Below the pieces are notes generated by a model. It searched no databases. It was not told the origin of the DNA and saw only the letters and a list, made by a program, of their open reading frames with translations. Shown here in pieces: positions 4,559 through 52,004 of a DNA stretch of 60,445 bases. This DNA comes from a virus (lineage: Duplodnaviria; Caudoviricetes). Numbering within the stretch: the first letter of the stretch is position 1; the number at the start of each line of letters is the position of its first letter. The position numbers and the translations under genes were made by a program. The stretch is taken from IMG/VR virus record IMGVR_UViG_3300027306_000005, positions 1-60,445 of that record. One strand, written 5' to 3'.

Positions 4559-5869
4559 ATGAGTGAACATCGCATTGACCTGAAGCAGCTTGAAAGCATC
4601 CGTGATGGATCGGGCCACTCGATCTTCGGAGCTTCAGGTTCGGCGATGTTCCTCAACTGTGCCTACTCTTTGATCCCCAACCTCCTGGCACCCGACGACG
4701 CGGGCGAGGACGCTGCATACGGCACCGTGGCTCACGCCATGGGCGAGTTGTGGCGCAAGACCGGCCGCAAGCCGGTTGAGTTCCTCGGCAAGCGCAAGTT
4801 CGTGGAGTCTGGAGAGTGGGGGTTCTTCATCGAGATCGACGAAACGATGCTCGACTATGTGCAGCAGTCCGTCGATTGGTCTGCACTTCTCCCTGGAGAT
4901 CACATAGTCGAGGTTCGTGTTGATTATTCCGACCTCACACCAATCAGGAACCAAGGTGGCACCCTGGACTTCGGCGCGATGATGCTGCACCGTGCTTACG
5001 TGCAGGACGAGAAGTACGGCAAGAACGAAGAAATCCTGGCCGAAGAGAACACCCAACTCATGCTCTATGCCTATGGCATGTACCGAGAGTGGGACTGGCT
5101 GTATGGCTTCAAGGAGTTCGTCATTCGCATCTCGCAGCCGCGCCTTGGTCACTTCGACGAGTGGGTGTGTAGCCGTTCACGCCTGTTGGAGTTCGCGGCA
5201 TGGGCCAAAGAGCGTATGCATCTGGCATGGAGTCACGATGCACGCCCCACCCCAGGTCACAAGCAGTGCAAGTGGTGCAAGGTCAAGTCGTCATGCGCTG
5301 CTGCCGCGAAGATGGAGAACGACCTTGTTACCGAGGCGTTCGCCAGCATTCGCGAGTACGACGAAGAAGACATTGCGCAGTTCAAGGAGACATTGGACGC
5401 CGGCCTTCTGGGTCGACCGCTCAGCGTGATGACACTGACCCTGGAACAGATGGTTGCTCTGAAGCAGTATCAGCGTTTCAGTGAGTCGTTCTGGAAATCA
5501 CTAGACAAGGAACTGATGCGACGTGCAATCACCATGCGGGAGAAGATCCCCGGCATGAAGTTGGTTCACGGACGCTCGTTTCGCACCTTTAAGAACAGGA
5601 ATGTTGCGATCAAGACGCTTACCAGCCTTGGTTGCGACATCAAAGATGTTGTGGTTGAAACCTTGGTCAGTCCTGCTGAAGCGGAGAACTTGCTTCGCAA
5701 AGCTGGCCACCGGCACAAGGATTTGCCCCAACTGCTTGGCCCGCTGGTTGAGAAACCTCCTGGCAAGCCCACCCTCGTTCCGCTGAGTGATCGGCGTGAC
5801 GAGATCAAAGATGTCACCGATGGCGCATTTGTCGCCTTTGACGATGACGAAACCGAAGAAACCGATTGA
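4559..5869 (+). CDS. DUF2800 / Cas4-like PD-(D/E)xK exonuclease
   Basis: HS..GASG, GTVAH, GTLD, DEKYG, QLMLYA and CKWC motifs. Confidence 0.85.
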   Translation: MSEHRIDLKQLESIRDGSGHSIFGASGSAMFLNCAYSLIPNLLAPDDAGEDAAYGTVAHAMGELWRKTGRKPVEFLGKRKFVESGEWGFFIEIDETMLDYVQQSVDWSALLPGDHIVEVRVDYSDLTPIRNQGGTLDFGAMMLHRAYVQDEKYGKNEEILAEENTQLMLYAYGMYREWDWLYGFKEFVIRISQPRLGHFDEWVCSRSRLLEFAAWAKERMHLAWSHDARPTPGHKQCKWCKVKSSCAAAAKMENDLVTEAFASIREYDEEDIAQFKETLDAGLLGRPLSVMTLTLEQMVALKQYQRFSESFWKSLDKELMRRAITMREKIPGMKLVHGRSFRTFKNRNVAIKTLTSLGCDIKDVVVETLVSPAEAENLLRKAGHRHKDLPQLLGPLVEKPPGKPTLVPLSDRRDEIKDVTDGAFVAFDDDETEETD

Positions 5870-5879
5870 AAGGTAGATC

Positions 5880-6527
5880 ATGAGCCAACTGACCGTTGTC
5901 AAGGAATACAAGAACGGCGCGATGATGAAGGACGCGAAGGGGGAGGTGTACTTCCGCGTCGACAAGATTCGCGCTTCCTACCCCTTCGTGGGCACCCCGT
6001 CGAAAGACGAGGGCGAGGATGGCAGCGAGCGCAGCAACTGGCGCATCGTCGGCATGCTGCCCAAGGCCACGCACACCGAGATCAAGGACGCCATGAAGCA
6101 GCACATCTTGCAGCTTCAGAAGGACAACGATGCTAAGGTGCCGGCTGACAAGTGGTATCTGAAGAACGGCGACGACTCGGAAGACGAAGCCATGCATGGC
6201 CACTTCTTGCTCAGTGCTGCCGACTCGAAGAAACGGCCCAAGGTGCGTGACCGCAAGGGTCAGGTCATGGACGACATCCAGAAGATCGATGACACCTTCT
6301 ACGGTGGCTGCTGGGTGAGCCTGCTGATCCGCCCCTGGTTCTTCAACGGCACCGCCCGCAGTTCGACGAAGAAGTTCCCCAAGCGTGTCTCGGCGAACCT
6401 CGTCGGCGTCATGTTCTACAAGGACGACACGCCGTTCGGCTCCGGCCGCATCGATGACGATGGCGCCTGGGGCGACACCGCGAGCGACGAAGACGACGGC
6501 ATGGACGACGGCGACGACGGCCTTTGA
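5880..6527 (+). CDS. DUF2815-type single-stranded DNA-binding protein
   Basis: RASYP, LKNGD, FYGGCW, D.PFG motifs, acidic tail, position between nuclease and polymerase. Confidence 0.85.
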   Translation: MSQLTVVKEYKNGAMMKDAKGEVYFRVDKIRASYPFVGTPSKDEGEDGSERSNWRIVGMLPKATHTEIKDAMKQHILQLQKDNDAKVPADKWYLKNGDDSEDEAMHGHFLLSAADSKKRPKVRDRKGQVMDDIQKIDDTFYGGCWVSLLIRPWFFNGTARSSTKKFPKRVSANLVGVMFYKDDTPFGSGRIDDDGAWGDTASDEDDGMDDGDDGL

Positions 6528-33346: not shown

Positions 33347-33552
33347 CCGACATCACCGTGACCATCGCAGACGTTCGTGCCTGCAACCTGTGCGTGCGTG
33401 GTGCTCGTCAGTGGTTCAACCTCAACAAGTTGGACTTCCAGCACTTCCTCATGCACGGCTATCCGATTGAAACCATCGAGGCCACGAACGATGCCCTGGG
33501 CAAGCAGGTGGCCGAGTACGCACGTCGTCGTGCAGCAGGGGAAGAAGAATGA
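33343..33552 (+). CDS. tail assembly protein
   Basis: C..GAR.WF....LD...F...G motif. Confidence 0.8.
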   Translation: MTDITVTIADVRACNLCVRGARQWFNLNKLDFQHFLMHGYPIETIEATNDALGKQVAEYARRRAAGEEE

Positions 33553-35132
33553 GTCGTTGGCACCGTCATGAATGGGACATGCTGCCCGAGCGGGCGTTCC
33601 AGCCTCGTGGGCCGCACGGCCAGATGACGCTTGAAGGTGGCGGTGGCGGTGGGAGCCAAGTGGTTGGCTACCGCTACTACTTCGGCATTCACATGGGTGT
33701 TTGCCGTGGCCCTGTCGATGAACTCGTGGCCATCAAGGTTGGCGACAAGCTGGCGTGGAGTGGCTCGGTCACATCGTCAGGTTACTTCTCAATCGACAAT
33801 CCGAACCTGTTCGGCGGGGACAAAGGCGAGGGTGGTATCCAAGGAACCGTGCGGGCGATGTTCGGAGAGGACACGCAGACGGCCCCAGGTGAGATCGAGG
33901 CGATGACAGGGACCGCGCAACCTGCGTTCCGTCGAAAGTTCACGCTGTTCTTCGATGGTCTGGTCAGCGCACTCAACCCATACCCGAAGGCATGGAAGAT
34001 GCGCGTGCGTCGCGTGCTCTCTGGTTGGCAAGATGGCACCTTACCTTCGTGGGGTGTGACGTACGGCAAGATCATCATGACGCCGAACGACTTTGCTACC
34101 CTCGGTTCCGAATGGGGTGACAAGTACATCCATGCGATGAACCCGGCCCTGATCATCTACGAGTGCTTGACCAACAAGCAGTGGGGTCGAGGCTTGAGCG
34201 CCGATGCGATTGACGACACCTCTTTTGCCGCTTCCGCGCAGACCCTGTGGTCCGAAGGCTTCGGCCTGTGCATCAAGTGGTCACGCAAGGACACGATCCG
34301 CAACTTCATCAGTTCGGTTCTTGATCATGTCGCTGCAACGCTCTACACCGACAGAAGCACCGGCAAGATCACGCTGAAGTTGATCCGTGACGACTACACG
34401 GTGAGCACGCTTCCACTCTTTACGCCGGAAACTGGCCTGCTTGACGTTTCTTCGAACGATGTCGTCAGCCCCAACGAACAGGTCAACGTCATTCAAGTGA
34501 AATACAGGCACGCTGTGACGAATGAGGCTCGGATCGTTCGAAGCGACAGCCTCGGCGGTGTCATCGGCAAGTACGGTGTTGTGAACGCGAGCACGAGGGA
34601 CTACCCAGGTATCCCAACGGCATCGCTCGCTTTGCGCGTGGCCGAGCGTGATCTACGCATTTCCGCTACCAGTCTTCGTCGCTACAGCTTCCGGCTCGAC
34701 CGCCGAGGCTATGCGGTCTACCCCGGTCAAGCCATTCGAATCGCCCACCCTTCGATGAACATCCCTGAGACGGTGGTTCGCGTGGGCAAGATCGAAGACA
34801 ACTTCGGCGACGGCAACATCAAAGTCACCGCAGTGCAGGATGTCTTTGGCCTGCCCTCCGAGAGTTTTGGTGGCAGCGTGGGCAGCACTTGGACGCCACC
34901 TGACACCGCACCCTGTGTGCCGTTCAACCGCGCGTTCGAAGTGCCTTACTTCCTTGTCGCTCGATACACGACGGCTTCCGAGTTTGCTTTCGTGGACGCC
35001 ACGTCAGCCGGCATCGGTGTCGTGGCTGACAAGGGTAAACCGCTCAACGGTGCGTATGACATCGCGGTTCGCACGAGTGCGCCGACCAGCGATGACAATG
35101 CTGTCGACGCTTCCTACAACTGCCCGATCTGA
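33549..35132 (+). CDS. central tail tip protein (gpJ-like)
   Basis: GYRYYFGIHMG, LFGGDKGEGG, NPYPK.W, MNPA.IIYECLT...WGRG. Confidence 0.85.
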   Translation: MSRWHRHEWDMLPERAFQPRGPHGQMTLEGGGGGGSQVVGYRYYFGIHMGVCRGPVDELVAIKVGDKLAWSGSVTSSGYFSIDNPNLFGGDKGEGGIQGTVRAMFGEDTQTAPGEIEAMTGTAQPAFRRKFTLFFDGLVSALNPYPKAWKMRVRRVLSGWQDGTLPSWGVTYGKIIMTPNDFATLGSEWGDKYIHAMNPALIIYECLTNKQWGRGLSADAIDDTSFAASAQTLWSEGFGLCIKWSRKDTIRNFISSVLDHVAATLYTDRSTGKITLKLIRDDYTVSTLPLFTPETGLLDVSSNDVVSPNEQVNVIQVKYRHAVTNEARIVRSDSLGGVIGKYGVVNASTRDYPGIPTASLALRVAERDLRISATSLRRYSFRLDRRGYAVYPGQAIRIAHPSMNIPETVVRVGKIEDNFGDGNIKVTAVQDVFGLPSESFGGSVGSTWTPPDTAPCVPFNRAFEVPYFLVARYTTASEFAFVDATSAGIGVVADKGKPLNGAYDIAVRTSAPTSDDNAVDASYNCPI

Positions 35133-35134
35133 CC

Positions 35135-35968
35135 ATGGCCAATAGCGACTATTCCGTGACAGCCACCTCGGCGCCTTTCTGCCCGAACGCGCAGATCGTC
35201 AATGCCGTAGGCCCTTTGACCACCGTCTTCGACATCGAGAACTTGCGCTCAACGGGCGTCGACGAAATCCTGGCCGGCGAGGCTGCGATGATCAACGACG
35301 AGATCGTCAAGGTGGTCAGCATCTCGTCGACTGAGTTGGTCGTCGCCCGTGGCTGTGCAGATACGATCCCACAGGCTCACGCCGCTGGCTCGCGCATCTG
35401 GTTCTTCAACGACAGCATCGGCTACGACGGACGTGAGTACGCCGGGTCTGAGACGGTAGGTGTGAAGATCCTGCCGAAGACGGCCAGTTCTCAGGTGCCC
35501 ATCGAGTACAGCCCACCTTCGGCCCTCACGTTCAACTTCCGCTTTGCTCGACCGTACGCCCCGGGGTTGGTCGAGGTCAACGGTGACCCGTTCACCGAGG
35601 TCAAGACCATCAACCCGACCAACGATACGCTGAGCCTGACCTGGGCGCACCGTGATCGCGTCACACAGTTCGACCAGTTGATCGACCACTTGGCCACCAG
35701 CATCGGCCCTGAGGCGGGCACCACCTACACCGTCAAGGCCCACAGGTCGAGCGACAACAGCGTGGTCAGGACGACGACGGGCATCACGGGAGCCAGTTGG
35801 ACTTACCCCTTGGCCACGGCGAGAAGTGATTTCGGGATCACGGTCGGCGCCGTGGGTGCACCTGTGGTGTTGACCGATGGCTACCTCACCCTGGAGGCGG
35901 TGCGTGACGGCTACACCTCATGGCAGAAATACAGGATCGACTTCAAGGTGAGCAACGCAGCCGTGTAA
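35135..35968 (+). CDS. tail tip-associated protein
   Basis: ARGCADTIPQ.H.AG..IWF, RPYAPG, W.HRDR, GPEAGTTY. Confidence 0.8.
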   Translation: MANSDYSVTATSAPFCPNAQIVNAVGPLTTVFDIENLRSTGVDEILAGEAAMINDEIVKVVSISSTELVVARGCADTIPQAHAAGSRIWFFNDSIGYDGREYAGSETVGVKILPKTASSQVPIEYSPPSALTFNFRFARPYAPGLVEVNGDPFTEVKTINPTNDTLSLTWAHRDRVTQFDQLIDHLATSIGPEAGTTYTVKAHRSSDNSVVRTTTGITGASWTYPLATARSDFGITVGAVGAPVVLTDGYLTLEAVRDGYTSWQKYRIDFKVSNAAV

Positions 35969-36831: not shown

Positions 36832-37262
36832 GCACGCAGATCACCCTCGCGAACTACTGGATGGGCCGGGACAAGACTCATCCGATGGACCTGAGCACGC
36901 TGGTCTACCGCAACGCTGAAGTCCTCGTCAGCCTGATCAACAAGCTGCTGCCCTTGGCCGAGGCGGACGGGGTGAAGTTCGAGATTCACCCACGTACGAA
37001 GTCGATCATCTCCGGTGGCTGGCGCCCGCCCGCGATCAACTCATCCACAAAGGGTGCGGCCGTCAACTCCAAGCACATCACCGGGCAAGCTGTCGATGTG
37101 TACGACCCGGATGGCGACTTCGACGAGTGGCTCATCAGCGAGCGCGGAATCAAGGCTCTGGAGCAGATCGGGTTGTGGATCGAGCATCCCGCGTCGACGA
37201 AGGGTTGGACTCACCTGCAATCGGTGCCACCGGGCTCCAAGCGGCGCGTGTTCTATCCCTAG
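36828..37262 (+). CDS. endolysin, peptidase M15 family
   Basis: SGGWRP...N...GAA.NSKHITGQAVD and W.H Zn-ligand motifs. Confidence 0.85.
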   Translation: MSTQITLANYWMGRDKTHPMDLSTLVYRNAEVLVSLINKLLPLAEADGVKFEIHPRTKSIISGGWRPPAINSSTKGAAVNSKHITGQAVDVYDPDGDFDEWLISERGIKALEQIGLWIEHPASTKGWTHLQSVPPGSKRRVFYP

Positions 37263-37271
37263 GAGGTTTCC

Positions 37272-37769
37272 ATGTTCGTGATCCCGACCCACTACAAGGT
37301 CATTGCAGGTGCCGCTCTCGCGGCCCTTTGCGCTTTCGGGGTTTGGTCGTTCGGCGAGGCCCGCTTTGCCGAAGGACAGGAGAGCGAAAGGGCACTGGCC
37401 AGGGCTGCGAAGACCACCGAATCCGAGAGCAGCCGCAAGCTCGAAGCTGATGTCTCGGGCAACAAGGAGAACCGTTATGACGAGTACATCAAGGCCCGTG
37501 ACACGGCCATCGCTTCTGCCGATGCTGCTCGCACTGAGCTTGGCCGGCTGCGCAACACCCTTGCCCGTTACCAACGTGGAGCCACCCAAGGCACCACCAC
37601 CGAATGCCGAGTTGATGAGCAAGCCGCGCTCGCTCGGAGCCTCGAAAGCTGCGGAGAACGACATCAAGAAGTGGCGCGAGACGGTGAACTCGACGCCGAG
37701 CAAGTGATCGGCTTGCAGAACTACATCCAATCCATCGCGCCTTTGTGCATTCGGAAAACTGAAGATTGA
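37272..37769 (+). CDS. Rz: i-spanin
   Basis: AGGAGG RBS; N-terminal TM plus coiled coil; ends ..GLQNYI. Confidence 0.8.
   Translation: MFVIPTHYKVIAGAALAALCAFGVWSFGEARFAEGQESERALARAAKTTESESSRKLEADVSGNKENRYDEYIKARDTAIASADAARTELGRLRNTLARYQRGATQGTTTECRVDEQAALARSLESCGERHQEVARDGELDAEQVIGLQNYIQSIAPLCIRKTED
37477..37707 (+). CDS. Rz1: o-spanin lipoprotein embedded in Rz
   Basis: AAGGAG RBS, lipobox LAGC, Pro-rich, +1 frame entirely inside Rz. Confidence 0.8.
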   Translation: MTSTSRPVTRPSLLPMLLALSLAGCATPLPVTNVEPPKAPPPNAELMSKPRSLGASKAAENDIKKWRETVNSTPSK

Positions 37770-37780
37770 AAGGAACCATC

Positions 37781-38146
37781 ATGAAACTCTTCTTCACGTT
37801 CATCCTGACCATCTTGCCAGCCATGGCCATGGCTTCCGCAGTGACCTGTCTGCCCAAGCAGCTCGCCGGCAGCGGCACAAGCGCCATTGCGCGTTCGAAC
37901 GCGAAGGGGGACTTCATCGCCTACTACTGTCCCAGGGAAGCCATGCCGACCATGTTCGTCTGCCTGAAGTCGACATGCTCCCTGGTCGCCAGCAAACGGG
38001 CCTTTGCGCAGATCCTCACCAACCCGAGCGTGGTGGGGGTCAACGCGGCCATCAAACCGTACACGCGTGACCCCCTGCGTGATCCTGAACTCAAACAGGT
38101 GTGGTTGCCGCACATCGACGAGATTGCCGCACTCGGAAAGCAGTGA
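37781..38146 (+). CDS. exported Cys-containing hypothetical protein
   Basis: Signal peptide MKLFF...AMA; 4 Cys. Confidence 0.7.
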   Translation: MKLFFTFILTILPAMAMASAVTCLPKQLAGSGTSAIARSNAKGDFIAYYCPREAMPTMFVCLKSTCSLVASKRAFAQILTNPSVVGVNAAIKPYTRDPLRDPELKQVWLPHIDEIAALGKQ

Positions 38147-38147
38147 C

Positions 38148-38462
38148 ATGACGACTGCGGAACGTGTCCTCCAAATCCTCAAAGAGAAGGATGGGTTCGT
38201 CCGCATCTCAGATCTGCGTTCGCTCGACGTGCACCCACAGACACTGTACCGGGTGATCGGAAAACTCTTGAACGAGGGCTTGATCGAGCGAGGGATTCGG
38301 ATCACGGATCGTGGGCAGGCTTGCAGGGCCACTCGGCAGCGCAAGACTTGTCCTGAACTGTCCATGTTGATTCACCCACCTCAGGAAACCTTCAAAGCTA
38401 TCAGCGATGAGGCCATTGAAGACTTGAGAAACGAAGCCGTTGAGGCCCGACAATTTCGCTGA
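38148..38462 (+). CDS. winged-helix protein (AbiEi N-terminal-like)
   Basis: GFVRISDL...VHPQTLYRVIGKLLNEGLIERG. Confidence 0.65.
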   Translation: MTTAERVLQILKEKDGFVRISDLRSLDVHPQTLYRVIGKLLNEGLIERGIRITDRGQACRATRQRKTCPELSMLIHPPQETFKAISDEAIEDLRNEAVEARQFR

Positions 38463-38502
38463 GAGTTAGCTCACTGAAACAACCTTAGAAAGGAAACACA
38501 TC

Positions 38503-40617
38503 ATGCCTTCTCCCGGAAAACGTGAAATCACTTCCAACGGTCTCGTCATGCCTGCTGGTCTCGGCGACGAGTTCGACGATGAGACGAACTGGCGCGCTCT
38601 CGATCAGATGATCTCGGGCACGCACCCACTGGTCAAGCTGCCGCGTTTGAACGCGCAGAATCAAGTCGTGGACGCTCAAGGGCGACCTGTGAGCGGCGCT
38701 GTTGTTTGGGCGACCAACCCCACCTTTGCTGGCGGGGCAGACCCTTCGGGTGTGACCCCTTCGGCCGCTGCTTGGAATGCAGCGTGTCAGGCCGCTGCGG
38801 CTCTCGGGGTGCCGGCTTTCGTTTGTGCCCCAAAGGGCAACTACTTGCTCGAATCGACTGTGTTCGTCCCTGCGGGGGTGTTCATTGTCGGCGAAGGGGC
38901 CGGCAACGGGGCGCACCCCTTGACCTTCACTCCGACGGCCAGTTCATCGTTCACCGATGGGTGGATGTTCCTCATCAACTCGACGAATGGGACGACGGCT
39001 GTATCAAACATCTATGCTGCTCAATACCTCGGCGGCATCATTGGTGCTCGTTTCAACAACTACACGACGAACCTGCCGAACATTCGGGGCGCAATGTGCT
39101 TTGGTTCCGCCTTCTTCCAAGACATCCGTTCCTACCGGATGACCTGTGCTCTGAAACGACCTCGGAACCATTACATTGACCGATTCACGGTGATCCGATG
39201 TCACTCTGACCAAGAGTACAACGGCACCACCGAGTACCAGATTGAGATCGACGGGACTGGTGACACCGTGCTGATTGACCGCTGCACCTTCCCGGACTCA
39301 GGCGGGGTCACTTCGAGCGGCGGCACAAACCCGATCAAAGCTGTTCGCTTCAAGAACAGCGATTCGTTGCTGTCTTGCGCAAGTGCTGTCGTGCGAGGAA
39401 ACGTCAATGGAGATCACCTCTTCGTTGGCGTCAAGGCGTTGCGCATGGAGGTCTTCCACAGCGAGTTCGGCAAGGTCACTTGCGACAGGACCAACGTGGC
39501 CCTCGAAGACTTCTACGTGGCCGTCCCGACCGCACACAACTACACACCGCTCGTCTTTGTCGGCAGCGGCTTCAGCAGTGCGGCGTACTTCGCCAAGCTC
39601 AAGAACATCGAGTTCAACTATGGTTGGGGCAACTTCCAGAGCCCTTACGCTTTCGAGATCAAAACTCACCACGAGTATCACCTCCAGATCGAGAACTGCT
39701 ACCGGGTCTCTGACTTGAGCGCCGCAGCCCCCGCACTGCTGGGCCTGCGCATCGCCAACGCCTCCGACGCGGCCGTCTCATCGTGGGCTGCCGCTGCCCA
39801 CATGGCCAGTGCCTACGGCATCCTCCACGGCTACACGCTCGAAGACATCCGTCGTACCGTCACCATGGATTCCACGTACGGTGGCGCGTACTTCGCTTCG
39901 GCTTCGAGTTCTCAAGCTGATTGGGACGAGGCCGCAGGCACGTACTACTACACGACGCAGTACCTGCTCGACCCCGTGAACATGATTGGGGTTAACCAGT
40001 CGAACGGTGTGCAGTCCGCGACGATCTCGGCAACCACAGACACCGGCATCTTCTTGACGACCAGTGTTGGCAGCAGCCTCCCTTCTGCGACGGTCATTCG
40101 GGTCTACCGAGGAACCACGTCGGGCTCGTACGACAAGTACATCGACCTGCCCGCCGTGATGGTTCGCTCGATCCAAGATTCGGGCTCGAAGGTCTGCGGC
40201 TTGCCGTGGCTGTCGCGGACTGCCGGCGCTGTCGATACGCTCAAAGCCAACGCCAACAGCGGCAAGTGGGCTGTCAGCAGTGCAACGGGTGTGCGCCGTG
40301 CGGAAGATGTGTTTGTCGCTCGGACGAACAGTAACGGGCCGTTCGGCGCTTACGGTGGCCGAGCCATCATCGTCTACACCGCAGCGATTGGCACAACTTC
40401 GTACTACGTGAGCGCACCAACAAACGCCATGGCAGGTGACTCGGCCAGGGTTGTCCGCTCGATTGCTGCGACAGGCACAGGTGCCATTGTTGTGCAGAAT
40501 CTCGGCTCAGGTGGTAGCACCACACGCACCCTCGGCTCCCCTGGCATGTGGGTCGATCTCTACTTCGACGGCACAAGCTGGATCGAAGTGGGTGGTGGAA
40601 CCATGGTCACGACCTAA
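38503..40617 (+). CDS. tailspike-like polysaccharide depolymerase (beta-helix)
   Basis: Pectate_lyase_3-like GADPSG..S.AA..AA....V..PKG.Y start of the enzymatic domain; shared N-terminal anchor. Confidence 0.75.
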   Translation: MPSPGKREITSNGLVMPAGLGDEFDDETNWRALDQMISGTHPLVKLPRLNAQNQVVDAQGRPVSGAVVWATNPTFAGGADPSGVTPSAAAWNAACQAAAALGVPAFVCAPKGNYLLESTVFVPAGVFIVGEGAGNGAHPLTFTPTASSSFTDGWMFLINSTNGTTAVSNIYAAQYLGGIIGARFNNYTTNLPNIRGAMCFGSAFFQDIRSYRMTCALKRPRNHYIDRFTVIRCHSDQEYNGTTEYQIEIDGTGDTVLIDRCTFPDSGGVTSSGGTNPIKAVRFKNSDSLLSCASAVVRGNVNGDHLFVGVKALRMEVFHSEFGKVTCDRTNVALEDFYVAVPTAHNYTPLVFVGSGFSSAAYFAKLKNIEFNYGWGNFQSPYAFEIKTHHEYHLQIENCYRVSDLSAAAPALLGLRIANASDAAVSSWAAAAHMASAYGILHGYTLEDIRRTVTMDSTYGGAYFASASSSQADWDEAAGTYYYTTQYLLDPVNMIGVNQSNGVQSATISATTDTGIFLTTSVGSSLPSATVIRVYRGTTSGSYDKYIDLPAVMVRSIQDSGSKVCGLPWLSRTAGAVDTLKANANSGKWAVSSATGVRRAEDVFVARTNSNGPFGAYGGRAIIVYTAAIGTTSYYVSAPTNAMAGDSARVVRSIAATGTGAIVVQNLGSGGSTTRTLGSPGMWVDLYFDGTSWIEVGGGTMVTT

Positions 40618-40628
40618 CCCACCAAAAC

Positions 40629-40654
40629 AAAAGGCCCAACACGGGGCCTTTCTT
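40629..40654. terminator. bidirectional terminator (copy 1)
   Basis: AAAAGGCCC-loop-GGGCCTTTCTT. Confidence 0.75.
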
Positions 40655-40669
40655 CATTGCAAGAAGCCG

Positions 40670-40713
40670 TCACAGGCTGTCGTCATCATCGTCGTCGTTC
40701 AGAGGATCGTGGG
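40670..40713 (-). pseudogene. 3' remnant of gene 42587..42889 (..HDPLNDDDDDDSL*)
   Basis: Near-identical to 42587-42633. Confidence 0.85.
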
Positions 40714-40860
40714 CAAACTCATCAGATCCATAAGCGAAGGTCAGCTTGTGCCGAGCCGGTCATGCTGATCCACCCTCCGCAAGATGTCTTTGAAGCTGTC
40801 AGCGACGAGGCCATCGAACGGTTAAGAAGTGAAGCCGTAGAGGCTCGGCAATTTCGCTGA
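40704..40860 (+). pseudogene. 3' remnant of the wHTH gene 38148..38462
   Basis: DRGQ...C.E..MLIHPPQ..F.A.SDEAIE.LR.EAVEARQFR* matches the C-terminal half. Confidence 0.85.
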
Positions 40861-40899
40861 GAATCGGCACACCGAAGCAACCTTTAGAAAGGAATAATC

Positions 40900-42408
40900 A
40901 TGCCTTCTCCCGGAAAACGTGAAATCACTTCCAACGGTCTCGTCATGCCTGTCGGTCTCGGCGACGAACAAGACGACAAGCACAACTGGCCGGCGTTTGA
41001 CCAGATGCTTTCGGGCACGCACCCGCTGGTCAAGCTGCCGCGTTTGAACGCGCAGAATCAAGTCGTGGACGCTCAGGGTCAGCCGGTGGGTGGTGCGGTG
41101 CCCTGGCAGGCTAATCAGGTCGTTTCACCGTGGGCGGGCGCGGTCTTGCCAACGGGGACCGATGCGATCAACGAATGGACTTCGGCGGGTTCTTCTGGCG
41201 CGGTCATCTCTAGCGACACAAACGTGAAGTTTGGTGGGCGTCCGACAACGCGCGTGACGTTCGGTGGCGCACCGAGTGGCACGGCCTTCGAAGTGGGTGT
41301 TTCGGGTGCTTCAGTCGCCATCCGGGGTGTGGCGCGTGAGCTGCTGAGCGGATACGCAGTTGTCGCGGTCAATGGCACAGCTCCCATCACCGCCGCGAAG
41401 CTGTACATCGGTGACGCAGGTTACGCGAACTACTACGAAGTGAACATCACGAACAATGCGCTCAACGCTGTGAAGGACATCGGCAATGGGTGGCGGCTGC
41501 TCATGGCTGATTGCTCGCTCGCGGGCGTTGTGAGCGTTCAAGGTGCCCCGAACCTTGACGGTCTCAAGCGCATGAAAGTCACTTGCTTCAGTGACGCCAA
41601 CCCGCCTTCAGGAAGCGTGTGGGTCGGGTTCGCGGGCGTGGTCAAGAAGCCGAAGCCAACTGTCGTTCTGACCTGTGACGATGGTTACTCCGAGTGGGCC
41701 AGCTACCTTTTCCCGGCGATGAAGGAGCGCAACGTTCCCGGCTCTTTCTCGATCGACGCGGGCTATGTGAGTGCGCCGGGCTTCATGACCGAGCAGCAGT
41801 TCAGGACGTCTCTGGCGACTTATGGCGACCTGATCGAATATGTGAATCACGGGGCCAACAACGTCGCGTATGCGCCGGCCAGCTTCGCGCAGTACACGGC
41901 CAACATCTTGCAGTGCGACGCGCTGCTGAAGGAGTGGGGAGTCACCGATGAATCGCGCAAGCTGCACACGTACGTGCAAGGTCAATTTGATCAGTCTCTG
42001 ATTGACTGGCTGGTGTCAAACGGCTTCAAGGCGGCGCGAGAAGTGGGGGCCTCGAACCGTTCGCAGTTCCATTTGGCGGCGCACCTTGGCATTCCCGATG
42101 TGAACAGGAACTCGCGCTACGCGATCCCAGCAGGCTGCAACCTGAGCAACGCCCAGCCGGTGGCCACGGTGATCGACTACATCGAAGAGGCGAAGCTACG
42201 CGGCTCAGCCTTCTTCCTGATGGGCCATGAGTTCAAGGTCGCACCAGGCCCTCAGGCTTACGTCGCCGGTTATCACGCGACGCACGGCATGAGCAACCTG
42301 CTGGACTACTTGGCGGCTGAGCGTGATGCAGGGCGGATCGACCTTGTGAAGTGGTCGACCTATGTGGAATCAATGTCCCTTGGTCGTCCTGTTGTTGGCG
42401 TGAGCTGA
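40900..42408 (+). CDS. polysaccharide deacetylase (NodB/CE4-like) with shared virion-type anchor
   Basis: VVLTCDDGY, NHG and MGH motifs; first ~65 aa nearly identical to 38503..40617. Confidence 0.78.
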   Translation: MPSPGKREITSNGLVMPVGLGDEQDDKHNWPAFDQMLSGTHPLVKLPRLNAQNQVVDAQGQPVGGAVPWQANQVVSPWAGAVLPTGTDAINEWTSAGSSGAVISSDTNVKFGGRPTTRVTFGGAPSGTAFEVGVSGASVAIRGVARELLSGYAVVAVNGTAPITAAKLYIGDAGYANYYEVNITNNALNAVKDIGNGWRLLMADCSLAGVVSVQGAPNLDGLKRMKVTCFSDANPPSGSVWVGFAGVVKKPKPTVVLTCDDGYSEWASYLFPAMKERNVPGSFSIDAGYVSAPGFMTEQQFRTSLATYGDLIEYVNHGANNVAYAPASFAQYTANILQCDALLKEWGVTDESRKLHTYVQGQFDQSLIDWLVSNGFKAAREVGASNRSQFHLAAHLGIPDVNRNSRYAIPAGCNLSNAQPVATVIDYIEEAKLRGSAFFLMGHEFKVAPGPQAYVAGYHATHGMSNLLDYLAAERDAGRIDLVKWSTYVESMSLGRPVVGVS

Positions 42409-42545
42409 CGTCCGTTACAAGATCGACCATCGAAGTCGTTGATGATCTTGGCTCAAACCAAAATTCGGCCGAGCTGGCTGCATTGAAGCCATCGCCGCTT
42501 AACCACCCGACTCGGCGCGGATCAGCGAATTAAGCCCACCAAAAC

Positions 42546-42571
42546 AAAAGGCCCCGTGTGGGGCCTTTCTT
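42546..42571. terminator. bidirectional terminator (copy 2) between convergent arms
   Basis: AAAAGGCCCC-GTGT-GGGGCCTTTCTT. Confidence 0.8.
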
Positions 42572-42586
42572 CATTGCGTCGTGCCG

Positions 42587-42889
42587 TCACAGGCTGTCGT
42601 CGTCATCGTCGTCGTCGTTCAGAGGATCGTGGGGCTTCTCGGCTACCTTGCCCTTGACAACCCTCTTTTCGGCCGCTGTGAGTGATCCTGACCTGTCCAC
42701 GGGGGCGTTGAGACGACTCTTGATGTGCTCGATCACGGCATCCCCGATGGCCAGAACGTCGCTGACCTTCCAGTTGTAGCCGTTCTTGACCCTGGAGACG
42801 GGCTTGACGCCGGCCTCGATCAGGATCTCGGGACGGAACTGCACACCGAAGTGCTTGCACAGTTGAGTGGTTGTGACGGTATCGCTCAT
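42587..42889 (-). CDS. hypothetical protein (possible DNA-binding) with acidic tail
   Basis: AAGGA RBS; ends DPLNDDDDDDDSL. Confidence 0.75.
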   Translation of the reverse strand: MSDTVTTTQLCKHFGVQFRPEILIEAGVKPVSRVKNGYNWKVSDVLAIGDAVIEHIKSRLNAPVDRSGSLTAAEKRVVKGKVAEKPHDPLNDDDDDDDSL

Positions 42890-42922
42890 TGGCTGGTTTC
42901 CTTGTTGTGGTTGGGTGGTTGA

Positions 42923-43852
42923 TCAAAGGCTCTCGTCGTCTTCGGCTTCGACCTTCGGCACGTCACCCAGCACGCGCACGCGCAGCCGCTTGCCGTCGAT
43001 GGCGTCGACGTGCTGGCGGGGCACCCGCACGAAGAACGTCACGTAGTCGTTGGCTTCGAGGTCTTCAGCCGGGGCGTACACGTCGACCACGATCTCGGGG
43101 TTCTTGGCCTTGGTGTCGCCCTTGGTCAGGGTCTTCTTGGTGATCTTCTTCTTGCCACCGGCCTCGGCCACCTCGACGGCTTCGGTCAGCTTCTTGGCCG
43201 CACCCTTGCCGTCCTTCTTGAGTTCTTCGATGGCCAGGGACGCCGAGACCTTGCCCTGCTCGACCAGCTTGCGCACAGCAGCGGGAGCCGCGAGCAACTC
43301 GAAGAGGTTGTCGACGTACTTCTTGGTGAAGCAGAGACGATCAGCGATGGCTTTGTTGTCCAGGCCAAAGCCCTGCAAACGTTTGCACACGATGGCCGTC
43401 TCGATGGGCGTCAGGGGACGCCCCTTGTTGCCGGTGACCAGGGCAACTGTGATGTCTTCTTGCGACGTACCTTGCGGTTTGACGATCACCGGGACCGCTT
43501 CGATGGTGTGACCTTCTTCGATGGCCATGCCCACGGCTTCGTGCCGCGTGTGACCCCCGGTCACGAAGATGGCGTTGTTGCCGTTCCTGTCCTTGCCCAC
43601 GTAGCCTTCGAGCGGCTTGTCACGGTAGAAACCGTTCGCCGTGATTGAGTTCTTGATGTCGTTGAGGTGGGCAAGGTACTCAGCGTTGCGAATGCGGACA
43701 TTGAAGCCCGGAATCACACGCAACTGGCTGTAGGGGACCATCCACAGGTCGGACGACGAGGCGCCTGCGTCCTTCATGGCGGCTTTGACGCTGCCGGGGA
43801 CGAGGCCCTCGATCACCGTGTCGGTGGTGGGGGTTGCTGCTTTGGTGTTCAT
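42923..43852 (-). CDS. ParB/Spo0J-like protein
   Basis: GFNVR, GGHTRH, N.GRPLTPIE and HTH IADRLCFTKKYV. Confidence 0.8.
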   Translation of the reverse strand: MNTKAATPTTDTVIEGLVPGSVKAAMKDAGASSSDLWMVPYSQLRVIPGFNVRIRNAEYLAHLNDIKNSITANGFYRDKPLEGYVGKDRNGNNAIFVTGGHTRHEAVGMAIEEGHTIEAVPVIVKPQGTSQEDITVALVTGNKGRPLTPIETAIVCKRLQGFGLDNKAIADRLCFTKKYVDNLFELLAAPAAVRKLVEQGKVSASLAIEELKKDGKGAAKKLTEAVEVAEAGGKKKITKKTLTKGDTKAKNPEIVVDVYAPAEDLEANDYVTFFVRVPRQHVDAIDGKRLRVRVLGDVPKVEAEDDESL

Positions 43853-43877
43853 GGTGCTTCCTTTCGGGGTTGTGATG

Positions 43878-44159
43878 TCAGGTGGTCTTCACCTTGGTCT
43901 GACGGAGGTAACGGTGGGAGATGAGGTGGTCGAGCAGTTCGTCCACCTGCTCATCCGGGAGATCGATGTGGGCCACCACGGTGCCATGCTGGCCTCGGGT
44001 GCGGACGTTGATGCGCGTCGTGTTGTCGCCTTGATCGGTCACGTTCAGGTAGCCGGGGTAGCCCTGGCCGGTGCTCTCGGTGTAGGCGAAAACGCAGGTG
44101 TGTTCTTGGCTCATGGTTGACTCCACAGTGGGTTGAGGGGAGACCAGTGTAGTGCTCAC
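43878..44159 (-). CDS. hypothetical protein
   Basis: Coupled ORF in the leftward operon; start uncertain (44159 or 44114). Confidence 0.6.
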   Translation of the reverse strand: MSTTLVSPQPTVESTMSQEHTCVFAYTESTGQGYPGYLNVTDQGDNTTRINVRTRGQHGTVVAHIDLPDEQVDELLDHLISHRYLRQTKVKTT

Positions 44160-50713: not shown

Positions 50714-50955
50714 CAGTACGACCTTCTCAGCGGCTCAGGTTCCGGCCATGGCTTTGCGAAGCCGATCAACTGACAAGGCACCTCGACTTCAACCACTTGC
50801 TGGAGGCTTCCTCGCGTCAGTTGCATGTACCGACCATTGCTAACGACGTTATCGGCCCATTCCTTTTTGGCGATGGGACCGGCAAGCATGCCCACGATCT
50901 CATCGGGCTTGTCGGGCATGACCTCGACGACGTAGTAGCAGGTGAACGTGGCCAT
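50713..50955 (-). CDS. hypothetical protein
   Basis: TGATG coupling to rdgC. Confidence 0.6.
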   Translation of the reverse strand: MATFTCYYVVEVMPDKPDEIVGMLAGPIAKKEWADNVVSNGRYMQLTRGSLQQVVEVEVPCQLIGFAKPWPEPEPLRRSY

Positions 50956-52004
50956 CACAGTTCCTCGTCGTCTTCTTCGTTGAGCGGATCGACGGGTTTG
51001 GTCTTGGCGATCTCCTTGGCCTCGCGCTTGAGTTCGGCCAGGGTCTTGAAGCCACCGAACTCGTGCATCAGGTTGATCACCACATCGGTGTACGTGCGAG
51101 CCGTGAGCCACAGGACGGCTTCGAGTTGCTGCTCGGTGGTCTCGGCGTCACCCATCTCGGTCTTGGCGACACCATCGTTGAACTTCAGACCCTTGAAGAC
51201 CAGCTTGTCGCTGAGCTTGAAGCTGAGCATGCGGTTCTCTTCGTTGCCGTTGGGGTCGTAGCTGATGCCGAGTTCATGCACGTCATACTGCTGCTTGAGC
51301 AGCTTGGTCACGTCATCCGACTCGATGTCCTTGTCCTTGATGCGGATGGTCTGCTTGCCCTCGCCACGCAGCACGGCGTTGTCGGTGACCATGAAGGCGC
51401 CGTCATCATTGGCACTGCTGAAGCCGTCCTTGGCCAGGAGGGTCAGCGTGCCCACCACGGCGTTGTTCGGTTGCAGCGGGTACCACGAGGTGTCGCTGCT
51501 CGTCATCTGGTTGAACAGGCCGCACAGCATCACAATGGTGTCCTCGGCACGCTTGGGCGAGGTCGTGCACACCAGCACGAGACGGTGCTTGGCGATGAAG
51601 ATCACCGGGGTGACGGAGCGGCGGATGAACGCCTTGGGAAGCAAGGAGAACTCGACTTCCTCCTTGAGCATGGCGTAGTCCTTCTTGCCGATGGCACGGC
51701 CTTCGCGCTGGTTGAACTTCTCAACCTCCTTGGCCAGGAACTCGTCACGCACCTTGCCAGGGAGGATGCGTTCGTTGACCTGCATGGCCATGAGGAACTT
51801 GCCTGCTTCGATCTGGTGGACGAGGTTTTCACCCACGGCAGCGATCAGACCCTGCGAGCGCCAGGACGTTGCGGCCGGGTCTTTGCTGCCCCACACCTCG
51901 GCGATGCTGCCGCTGAGGGTCTCGGGCTCATCACCCTTGAGCCAGTCGAAGACGGCTTGCGATGCGAGGTAGGGGATGAACGCGGGGAACTTGAGCTTCT
52001 TCAT
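50955..52004 (-). CDS. rdgC: recombination-associated protein RdgC
   Basis: ERILPG.V, EGR.IGKK....LKEE....LLPKAF, ends ..FGG. Confidence 0.85.
   Translation of the reverse strand: MKKLKFPAFIPYLASQAVFDWLKGDEPETLSGSIAEVWGSKDPAATSWRSQGLIAAVGENLVHQIEAGKFLMAMQVNERILPGKVRDEFLAKEVEKFNQREGRAIGKKDYAMLKEEVEFSLLPKAFIRRSVTPVIFIAKHRLVLVCTTSPKRAEDTIVMLCGLFNQMTSSDTSWYPLQPNNAVVGTLTLLAKDGFSSANDDGAFMVTDNAVLRGEGKQTIRIKDKDIESDDVTKLLKQQYDVHELGISYDPNGNEENRMLSFKLSDKLVFKGLKFNDGVAKTEMGDAETTEQQLEAVLWLTARTYTDVVINLMHEFGGFKTLAELKREAKEIAKTKPVDPLNEEDDEEL

Follow-up and report, generated by a model that had tools for sequence, protein, structure and literature searches.

Tandem duplication and unequal crossover at short stretches of microhomology have their classical examples in phages T4, T7 and lambda, and a phage moron is a gene inserted between two others together with its own terminator. 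Illegitimate recombination without extensive homology, possibly helped by phage recombinases, is presented in PMC3029335 as an attractive mechanism for the formation of mosaic junctions. For modular receptor-binding proteins, PMC10408124 describes anchors that are conserved within a genus, bodies that are swapped between genera and, flanking the body, conserved DNA motifs with a possible role in promoting recombination. Here, we compare with these systems a locus in the virus record IMGVR_UViG_3300027306_000005, which was analyzed over its whole length of 60,445 bases (referred to below as the window). At this locus, two genes for putative enzymes that share an N-terminal module (the anchor) and whose remaining parts are unrelated (cargo 1 and cargo 2) follow one another between a winged-helix-like gene, L, and a convergent gene, R, and relics of both R and L lie between the two cargos (Table 1). 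We conclude that the locus is probably the scar of a single microhomology-mediated unequal crossover between two related Chi-like phages that carried different L alleles and different cargo.

The 10-mer GGATCGTGGG occurs three times in the window, always exactly and on the plus strand, at positions 38306, 40704 and 42624, i.e., with spacings of 2398 and 1920 bases; 0.26 copies are expected by chance, and three or more copies were found in 1 of 100 shuffles. An earlier note on this DNA had described two tandem units with the 10-mer inside the left gene, inside the right gene and at a hybrid junction, and this description was confirmed. A repeat finder and pairwise alignments delimited two head-to-tail units of 2398 and 1920 bases, and direct repeat families D1, D2, D3 and D8 have offsets of 2397/2398 and 1917/1920. 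Each unit runs through the 3′ half of L or its relic, a ribosome-binding site, the anchor, the body, a G+C-rich hairpin and the 3′ end of R or its relic, in this order. In the left arm, 38347-38486 matches 40745-40884 with 76% identity and 38500-38702 matches 40897-41099 with 86% identity, and with its spacing of 2398 bases the 10-mer falls in register with these matches. In the right arm, 40618-40713 (96 nucleotides, nt) matches 42535-42633 (99 nt), and the two stretches differ by one substitution, one 3-nt indel and two clusters of 5 nt each. Identical blocks measure 55 and 50 nt in the left arms and 25, 20, 19 and 18 nt in the right arms. The homology to R ends with the last base of the middle 10-mer, and the homology to L begins at (or before) its first base; the bases that border the 10-mer copies differ (C versus A on the left, C versus G on the right). 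This is exactly the topology expected from an unequal crossover at the 10-mer, one of the routes that had been suggested, with the R homology giving way to the L homology inside one 10-base stretch. Three pieces make up the scar: a terminator copy, the final 13-14 codons of R and the final 51 codons of a second, diverged L allele, the latter two being fused at the 10-bp microhomology.

As in microhomology-mediated tandem duplication or unequal crossover, the units are arranged head to tail, the novel joint connects distal to proximal sequence, a short identity is found at both parental sites and at the joint, and there is no recombinase. Unlike in a classical tandem duplication, the units are not copies of each other but contain different L alleles and unrelated cargo, and therefore, the partners were probably two different genomes; in addition, the joint lies inside two genes, and both relics are unpolished. 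Like a moron, unit 2 behaves as an added block, with a terminator as its last element, and is located at the end of the late operon; unlike a moron, it has no promoter of its own that we could find, and it carries relics of both flanking genes as well as a structural anchor. The likeness to modular receptor-binding proteins lies in a conserved N-terminal module, in the unrelated bodies behind it and in the presence of the same bodies behind other N-termini elsewhere. Unlike in those proteins, the anchor family is rare, its cargo is mostly of the deacetylase or esterase type, virion attachment is putative, and what has moved is an entire cassette, flanking-gene pieces from both sides included, rather than a body at a domain border.

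Full-text literature searches returned general work on phage mosaicism and tailspike modularity and no account of the anchor family, of Casjensviridae deacetylase cassettes or of a tailspike tandem with microhomology relics. The locus is a clean new instance of known processes; neither a new recombination system nor a host-range switch is established by it. Most phage mosaic joints have been polished by selection, and their formation is therefore argued from indirect evidence. Here, the relics of the parental genes and the microhomology are both still in place, which makes the locus a readable example. Interpreted as above, it shows how one illegitimate crossover can turn a phage with one tail enzyme into a phage with two, and how the anchors then begin to be homogenized by homologous exchange. 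It also draws attention to a rare anchor family that, within a small group of Chi-like phages, is joined to deacetylases, esterases and beta-helix enzymes.

The two L alleles, that of the intact gene (L1) and that of the relic (L2), are strongly diverged. From the 10-mer to the stop codon, their nucleotide identity is 69%, with a proportion of synonymous differences (pS) of 0.63, a synonymous divergence (dS) of 1.35 and a nonsynonymous divergence (dN) of 0.28. The differences are mostly synonymous; over the last 35 codons, dN/dS is ~0.11, and the relic contains no indels and no internal stops. The first 13 codons (39 nt) of the relic past the 10-mer are merely 41% identical to L at the nucleotide level. 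Because of the dN/dS of ~0.11 and the intact frame, the divergence must have arisen while both alleles were working genes, before the joint was formed; judging from these substitution patterns, it accrued in separate lineages, and the truncation of L is recent. A recent event is also consistent with the right arms, in which no more than about four events (a flipped terminator hairpin, a 5-nt cluster, one Asp-codon indel and one substitution) account for the differences over 96-99 nt. The earlier suggestion that the units are alleles from two related phages is thus borne out by the divergence values.

In the course of events that we propose, two related phage genomes would have co-replicated, one with L1 and the beta-helix cargo and the other with L2 and the deacetylase cargo. 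A single illegitimate crossover at GGATCGTGGG would have joined R of the L1-cargo 1 genome to L of the L2-cargo 2 genome, the product being a genome with both enzymes and with relics between them. Later, the anchors would have been partly homogenized by gene conversion. The order of events, the co-infection, the role of the module as a tail anchor and the specificities of the enzymes are what we infer. The window encodes a DUF2800 PD-(D/E)XK nuclease, an Enc34-type single-stranded DNA-binding protein and RdgC (4559-6527 and 50955-52004); together, these possibly form a phage recombination module and may have helped the crossover.

Table 1. Features of the two-enzyme locus, its borders and the corresponding places in relatives. 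Positions are those of the window.
Feature	Position	Strand	Remarks
Spanin gene with embedded lipoprotein open reading frame (ORF)	37272-37769	+	From the ORF list; left border of the variable slot
Small protein, 126 amino acids (aa), signal-peptide-like N-terminus	37766-38146	+	No Pfam or PHROG family
L, intact winged-helix-like gene, 104 aa	38148-38462	+	Orphan; weak Pfam and Atlas leads
10-mer, copy 1	38306-38315	+	Inside L; covers D-R-G codons
Cargo 1, 704 aa: anchor (~residues 1-62) and 640-aa beta-rich body	38503-40617	+	PF12708 sub-threshold; Atlas leads
Internal bidirectional terminator hairpin copy	40629-40652	.	Inverted form of hairpin 42546-42569
R relic, 44 bases: stop, last 13 codons and 2 bases of the next	40670-40713	-	One Asp codon fewer than R
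10-mer, copy 2	40704-40713	+	Hybrid joint between R relic and L relic
L relic, 157 bases: last 51 codons and stop of a diverged allele	40704/40705-40860	+	Frame still open
Cargo 2, 502 aa: anchor and NodB-type polysaccharide deacetylase body	40900-42408	+	PF01522
Bidirectional terminator hairpin at the right slot border	42546-42569	.	Core conserved in G001 and G002; loops differ
R, intact convergent gene, 100 aa, acidic poly-Asp tail	42587-42889	-	No Pfam or PHROG family
10-mer, copy 3	42624-42633	+	Inside R; minus strand covers P-H-D-P codons
Slot of G001			Spanin, deacetylase (473 aa), 653-660-aa protein, 123-aa homologue of the 126-aa gene, terminator, R
Slot of G002			Spanin, deacetylase (539 aa), 443-aa protein, terminator, R
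Contig L007			Anchor gene directly after spanin

Contigs of the Logan collection from sequencing run X1 match the region with zero differences; X1 may be the source sample of the record, in which case they represent a re-assembly and not an independent sample. A single unitig (record 4; 2278 nt, 38649-40926) runs from cargo 1 through the terminator and the R relic, across the joint and the L relic, into the beginning of the second anchor. It has a depth of 67.6, compared with 72.2 for the left flank and 70.5 for cargo 2 with the right flank, and the two exact anchor repeats have depths of 143 and 165, about twice those of the flanks. The tandem joint is physically real. An assembly artefact, in which two single-unit strains are co-assembled into a false tandem, might be suspected in a metagenome record whose exact anchor repeats are longer than the usual k-mers. 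However, the hybrid R/L joint would exist in neither single-unit strain, yet it is found inside one unitig at flank-like depth, and the depths of cargo 1 and cargo 2 each equal that of the left flank rather than summing to it. We consider such an artefact, which the earlier note had allowed for, extremely unlikely. Run X2 yielded three short low-depth contigs with cargo 1 sequence (0-4 differences), which are uninformative on the junction. An apparent match of X2 to the joint was rejected as it consisted of spurious 18-21-nt matches, of which those at the two unit borders fell in an Asp-codon repeat.

Among the matches listed, the carriers of the anchor outside the window were two virus records, G001 and G002, both complete relatives, and one short metagenome contig, L007. 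The exact 10-mer is absent from the whole records of G001 and G002 and from L007, contrary to what would be expected of a conserved site; at the homologous place in R, G001 has 1 and G002 has 3 mismatches to it. Random pairs of gene-sized segments of the genome had a 10-mer in common in 496 of 3000 draws (pairs less than 1 kb apart were skipped yet kept in the denominator), and microhomologies of such length are thus readily available. We regard the 10-mer as a likely chance microhomology that was used once and not as a dedicated recombination site. Were it instead the core of an attachment-like site for a recombinase, the presence of three identical copies at the unit borders would be explained by site-specific recombination. 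Integron-like and shufflon-like cassette systems have a recombinase and a conserved border site, neither of which was found here: no integrase or resolvase is encoded (there was no match to PF00589 or PF00239, the tyrosine and serine recombinase families, in the genome), the arm alignments revealed no conserved inverted repeats flanking the 10-mer, and the site is absent in the relatives. We give this alternative next to no credence, and the designation of the locus as integrase-free stands.

Several points weigh against a single crossover between two phages. L1 has kept all bases of the 10-mer though the next 39 nt are only 41% identical between the alleles; most of this is accounted for by conservation of the D-R-G codons, and for the remainder, by our own estimate (D-R-G conserved, pS 0.63), the chance of all synonymous sites of the 10-mer agreeing is ~0.05. 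Whichever scenario is assumed, this is a mild coincidence. The R arms belong to one allele, while the L arms are far apart. Cargo 2 is separated from cargo 1 by a terminator copy, and no sigma-70-like promoter was detected upstream of it; its expression is therefore putative. The scar is known from one genome, and from contigs rather than raw reads. A single-unit genome together with a 2.4-kb circle at equal abundance would also fit the unitig graph, although it is a far less economical solution. Finally, two other routes are not separable from the crossover by these data. One starts from a duplication inside a single genome, after which one of the units is replaced by a different allele; the final sequence would be the same. 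The other is the integration, by homology in the terminator/R arm, of a 1.9-kb circle cut from a relative between the L and R 10-mers. This route leads to the same final structure, and near-identical right arms are expected if integration took place there, but it takes two events where one suffices, and X1 contains no circle joint besides the tandem joint; we find it highly improbable.

The earlier note had also proposed an active accordion, i.e., a slot that repeatedly gains and loses cassettes via the 10-mer and the homologous arms and thereby switches host range. The topological part of this proposal holds: recombination between the left arms would drop cargo 1, recombination between the right arms would drop cargo 2, and loss of a unit through the 55- and 50-nt identical anchor blocks looks plausible from the alignments. 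The exact blocks in both arms, the signs of gene conversion in the anchors and the encoded nuclease and single-stranded DNA-binding protein would all suit such activity. So would the depth of the unit-1 unitig, which is ~5% lower than those of the flanks; this difference is within noise, and we rejected it as a sign of deletion variants. The switching part is not supported. The 10-mer is missing from all three anchor carriers and L from both complete relatives. The number of anchor genes is exactly two in all three complete genomes (the window, G001 and G002), so that the predicted variation in copy number is not seen in either of the two relatives. Likewise, neither circles nor single-unit deletions were present in the X1 contigs, and unitig records 4 and 7 both run on without an alternative joint, though rare variants drop out of contigs and would not be visible there.

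The distribution of the bodies also argues against an accordion. The anchor was present in none of three homologues of the cargo-1 body. Among 12 homologues of the cargo-2 body, whose N-termini were judged by eye over the first 110 residues, one had a related anchor, nine had other N-termini and two started inside the body. Since the bodies stand behind other N-termini elsewhere, swaps at the anchor/body boundary, rather than moves of whole cassettes, appear to be the usual route. An active accordion is therefore quite improbable, and host-range switching is something that the repeats could plausibly lead to rather than a mechanism that was observed; a role in host range, deduced from the enzyme types, is speculation. 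A less specific possibility, which we consider unlikely, is that the slot is still breathing, with recombination between anchor blocks or between terminator/R arms recurrently adding and removing cassettes in natural populations. If so, members of the lineage with one, two and three enzymes, differing in their ranges of host surface glycans, would exist side by side, and this process, followed by polishing, would also have produced the scar-free enzyme pairs of the relatives.

By its size and the likeness of its portal, the record, which is classed as linear and has a CheckV completeness of 99, is judged to be a near-complete genome of a Chi-like siphovirus (Casjensviridae-type); the portal protein is ~60% identical to those of Chi, YSD1 and related Chi-like siphovirus records (tblastn). 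Late genes for the tape measure, tail tip, holin, endolysin and spanin run rightward and end at the slot region, and from 42587 on, the genes run leftward, starting with R, a ParB-like gene and further genes. The region in between is a variable slot, located between the lysis genes and a convergent early operon, that holds enzyme genes with a common N-terminal module. When the phage collection was queried with 37700-43900, megablast found no match, and the sole match in a distant DNA search was a 185-nt stretch of ParB in two Erythrobacter phages. Rfam contained no family within 37000-44000, and no PHROG family was found for L, R, cargo 1 or the 126-aa protein.

Identity to the window is ~92% over most of the genome for G001 and ~70-75% for G002. 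In the comparison with G001, identity of 88-97% drops to 54-75% from ~37364, in the middle of the spanin gene (the BLAST alignment breaks at 37753), and recovers only in the 5′ part of R (~42815); R itself is 64-69% identical in its 3′ half and 97% identical at its 5′ end. It follows from this collapse between 37364 and 42815 that the whole slot was exchanged together with the adjoining halves of both border genes. The cargo differs in every genome, the three deacetylases being at most 29% identical to one another, and neither L nor the relic nor the internal terminator is present in the slots of G001, G002 and L007. Thus, exchange of cargo in a common slot, as had been suggested, is seen in the relatives; the companion idea, that the 10-mer borders a reusable slot, is at odds with the absence of both the 10-mer and L. 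The gene for the 126-aa protein occupies the left end of the window's slot but the right end, beside the terminator, of that in G001 (L003 8392-8763; 76% nucleotide identity), and this opposite placement implies that the slot has been rearranged more than once. G001 also carries an extra 81-aa ORF (L003 7722-7967) between the ParB-like gene and R, which the window lacks.

Weak matches of L to the Pfam families HTH_Crp_2 and MarR are below cut-off, and Atlas structure rows with template-modeling (TM) scores of 0.6-0.7 relate it to TrmB/MarR-type clusters, pointing to a winged helix-turn-helix protein. A collection of 5.8 billion proteins contained no homologue except L itself, and the 26 stretches in viral contigs that matched the L pattern yielded no confirmed case. 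In the tail of R, the poly-Asp run is 7 residues long (42590-42632) and that of the relic 6; G001 (L003 8270-8312) and G002 (L004 8270-8321) have longer Asp/Glu runs there. The GAC/GAT repeats that encode poly-Asp are prone to slippage and also give rise to spurious short contig matches.

A bidirectional terminator in each unit, another element of the earlier description, was verified: both hairpins fold, with G+C-rich stems of 8-10 bp and with A and T runs on either side. Over 22 nt, the hairpins at 40629-40652 and 42546-42569 are inverted relative to each other with 95% complementarity, and their loops are AACACG and CGTGTG, which looks like flipping or template switching at a conserved bidirectional terminator. 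The internal terminator and the lack of a detected promoter before cargo 2 suggest a raw scar and not a tuned device. A 126-nt spacer (42409-42534) separates the cargo-2 stop from the terminator. Unit 1 lacks such a spacer, its cargo-1 stop directly adjoining the terminator homology, and no relative of the spacer was found in G001, in G002 or elsewhere in the window. In the segment from the terminator to the R stop, a 5-nt cluster reads AAGAA in unit 1 (40655-40669) and GTCGT in unit 2 (42572-42586). In unit 1 alone, AAGAA makes a small CTTCTT...AAGAAG inverted repeat, and the cluster resembles a quasi-palindrome template-switch mutation.

The two anchors of the window are 88% identical over 60 aa (38503-38682 versus 40900-41079), and past residue ~100 the cargos have no similarity, as expected from the earlier account of a conserved N-terminal anchor before unrelated cargo. 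That account had also named the cargos as a deacetylase and a depolymerase. The former is supported by a match of cargo 2 to Polysacc_deac_1 (PF01522; 31.8 bits, E 1.6e-7, cut-off 23.1). The latter has behind it a sub-threshold match of cargo 1 to PF12708 (25 bits, cut-off 27) and Atlas leads, from which the body is probably a right-handed beta-helix glycanase. An AlphaFold2 (AF2) model of cargo 1, built from 4 sequences, had a mean predicted local distance difference test (pLDDT) score of 44.4 and was too poor for use. A tblastn search of phages with cargo 1 returned hypothetical proteins with 21-27% identity in 6 records, and an alignment scan of viral contigs gave two loci only, with 25% identity; cargo 2 had no tblastn match among phages.

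The anchor consensus, MPSPGKRExTxNGLVMPNGLGDEQDD..NW...DQM.SGTHP, covers ~60 aa. A profile made from seven anchors retrieved 19 proteins at E ≤ 1e-3 among 1.84 billion representatives, i.e., the family is rare. Nine further anchor matches were scanned for domains: four had GDSL- or SASA-type esterase domains and five had no Pfam family, two of the latter being 142-aa proteins. The bodies behind the anchor are thus NodB, GDSL, SASA or beta-helix-like, mostly deacetylases and esterases. The anchor itself has no relative in PDB, Pfam or PHROGs; when PDB sequences were searched with its profile or with either cargo, no match had an E value below 0.1. A scan of genome contigs for the anchor returned 64 stretches, none of which was confirmed, and in metagenomes, at least one short contig (L007) was confirmed among the matches listed.

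Mismatches between the two anchors of the window are clustered, with 29 in 203 nt and exact runs of 55 and 50 nt, and 0 of 100,000 shuffles reached both run lengths. Moreover, in each of the three complete genomes, the two anchors are each other's closest relatives (84-87% nucleotide identity within versus 62-79% between genomes). We read the clustering and the closeness within genomes as the result of gene conversion between anchors, and the pattern fits homogenization after the joint had formed.

The module is probably a tail anchor. The J-like central tail protein is split into two pieces, encoded at 33549-35132 (527 aa) and 35135-35968 (277 aa), and the same split is found in G001 and G002. 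Jointly, the pieces match positions 70-801 of the 1405-position phrog_1101; the distal receptor-binding part is thus missing, and the anchor-bearing enzymes may take its place.

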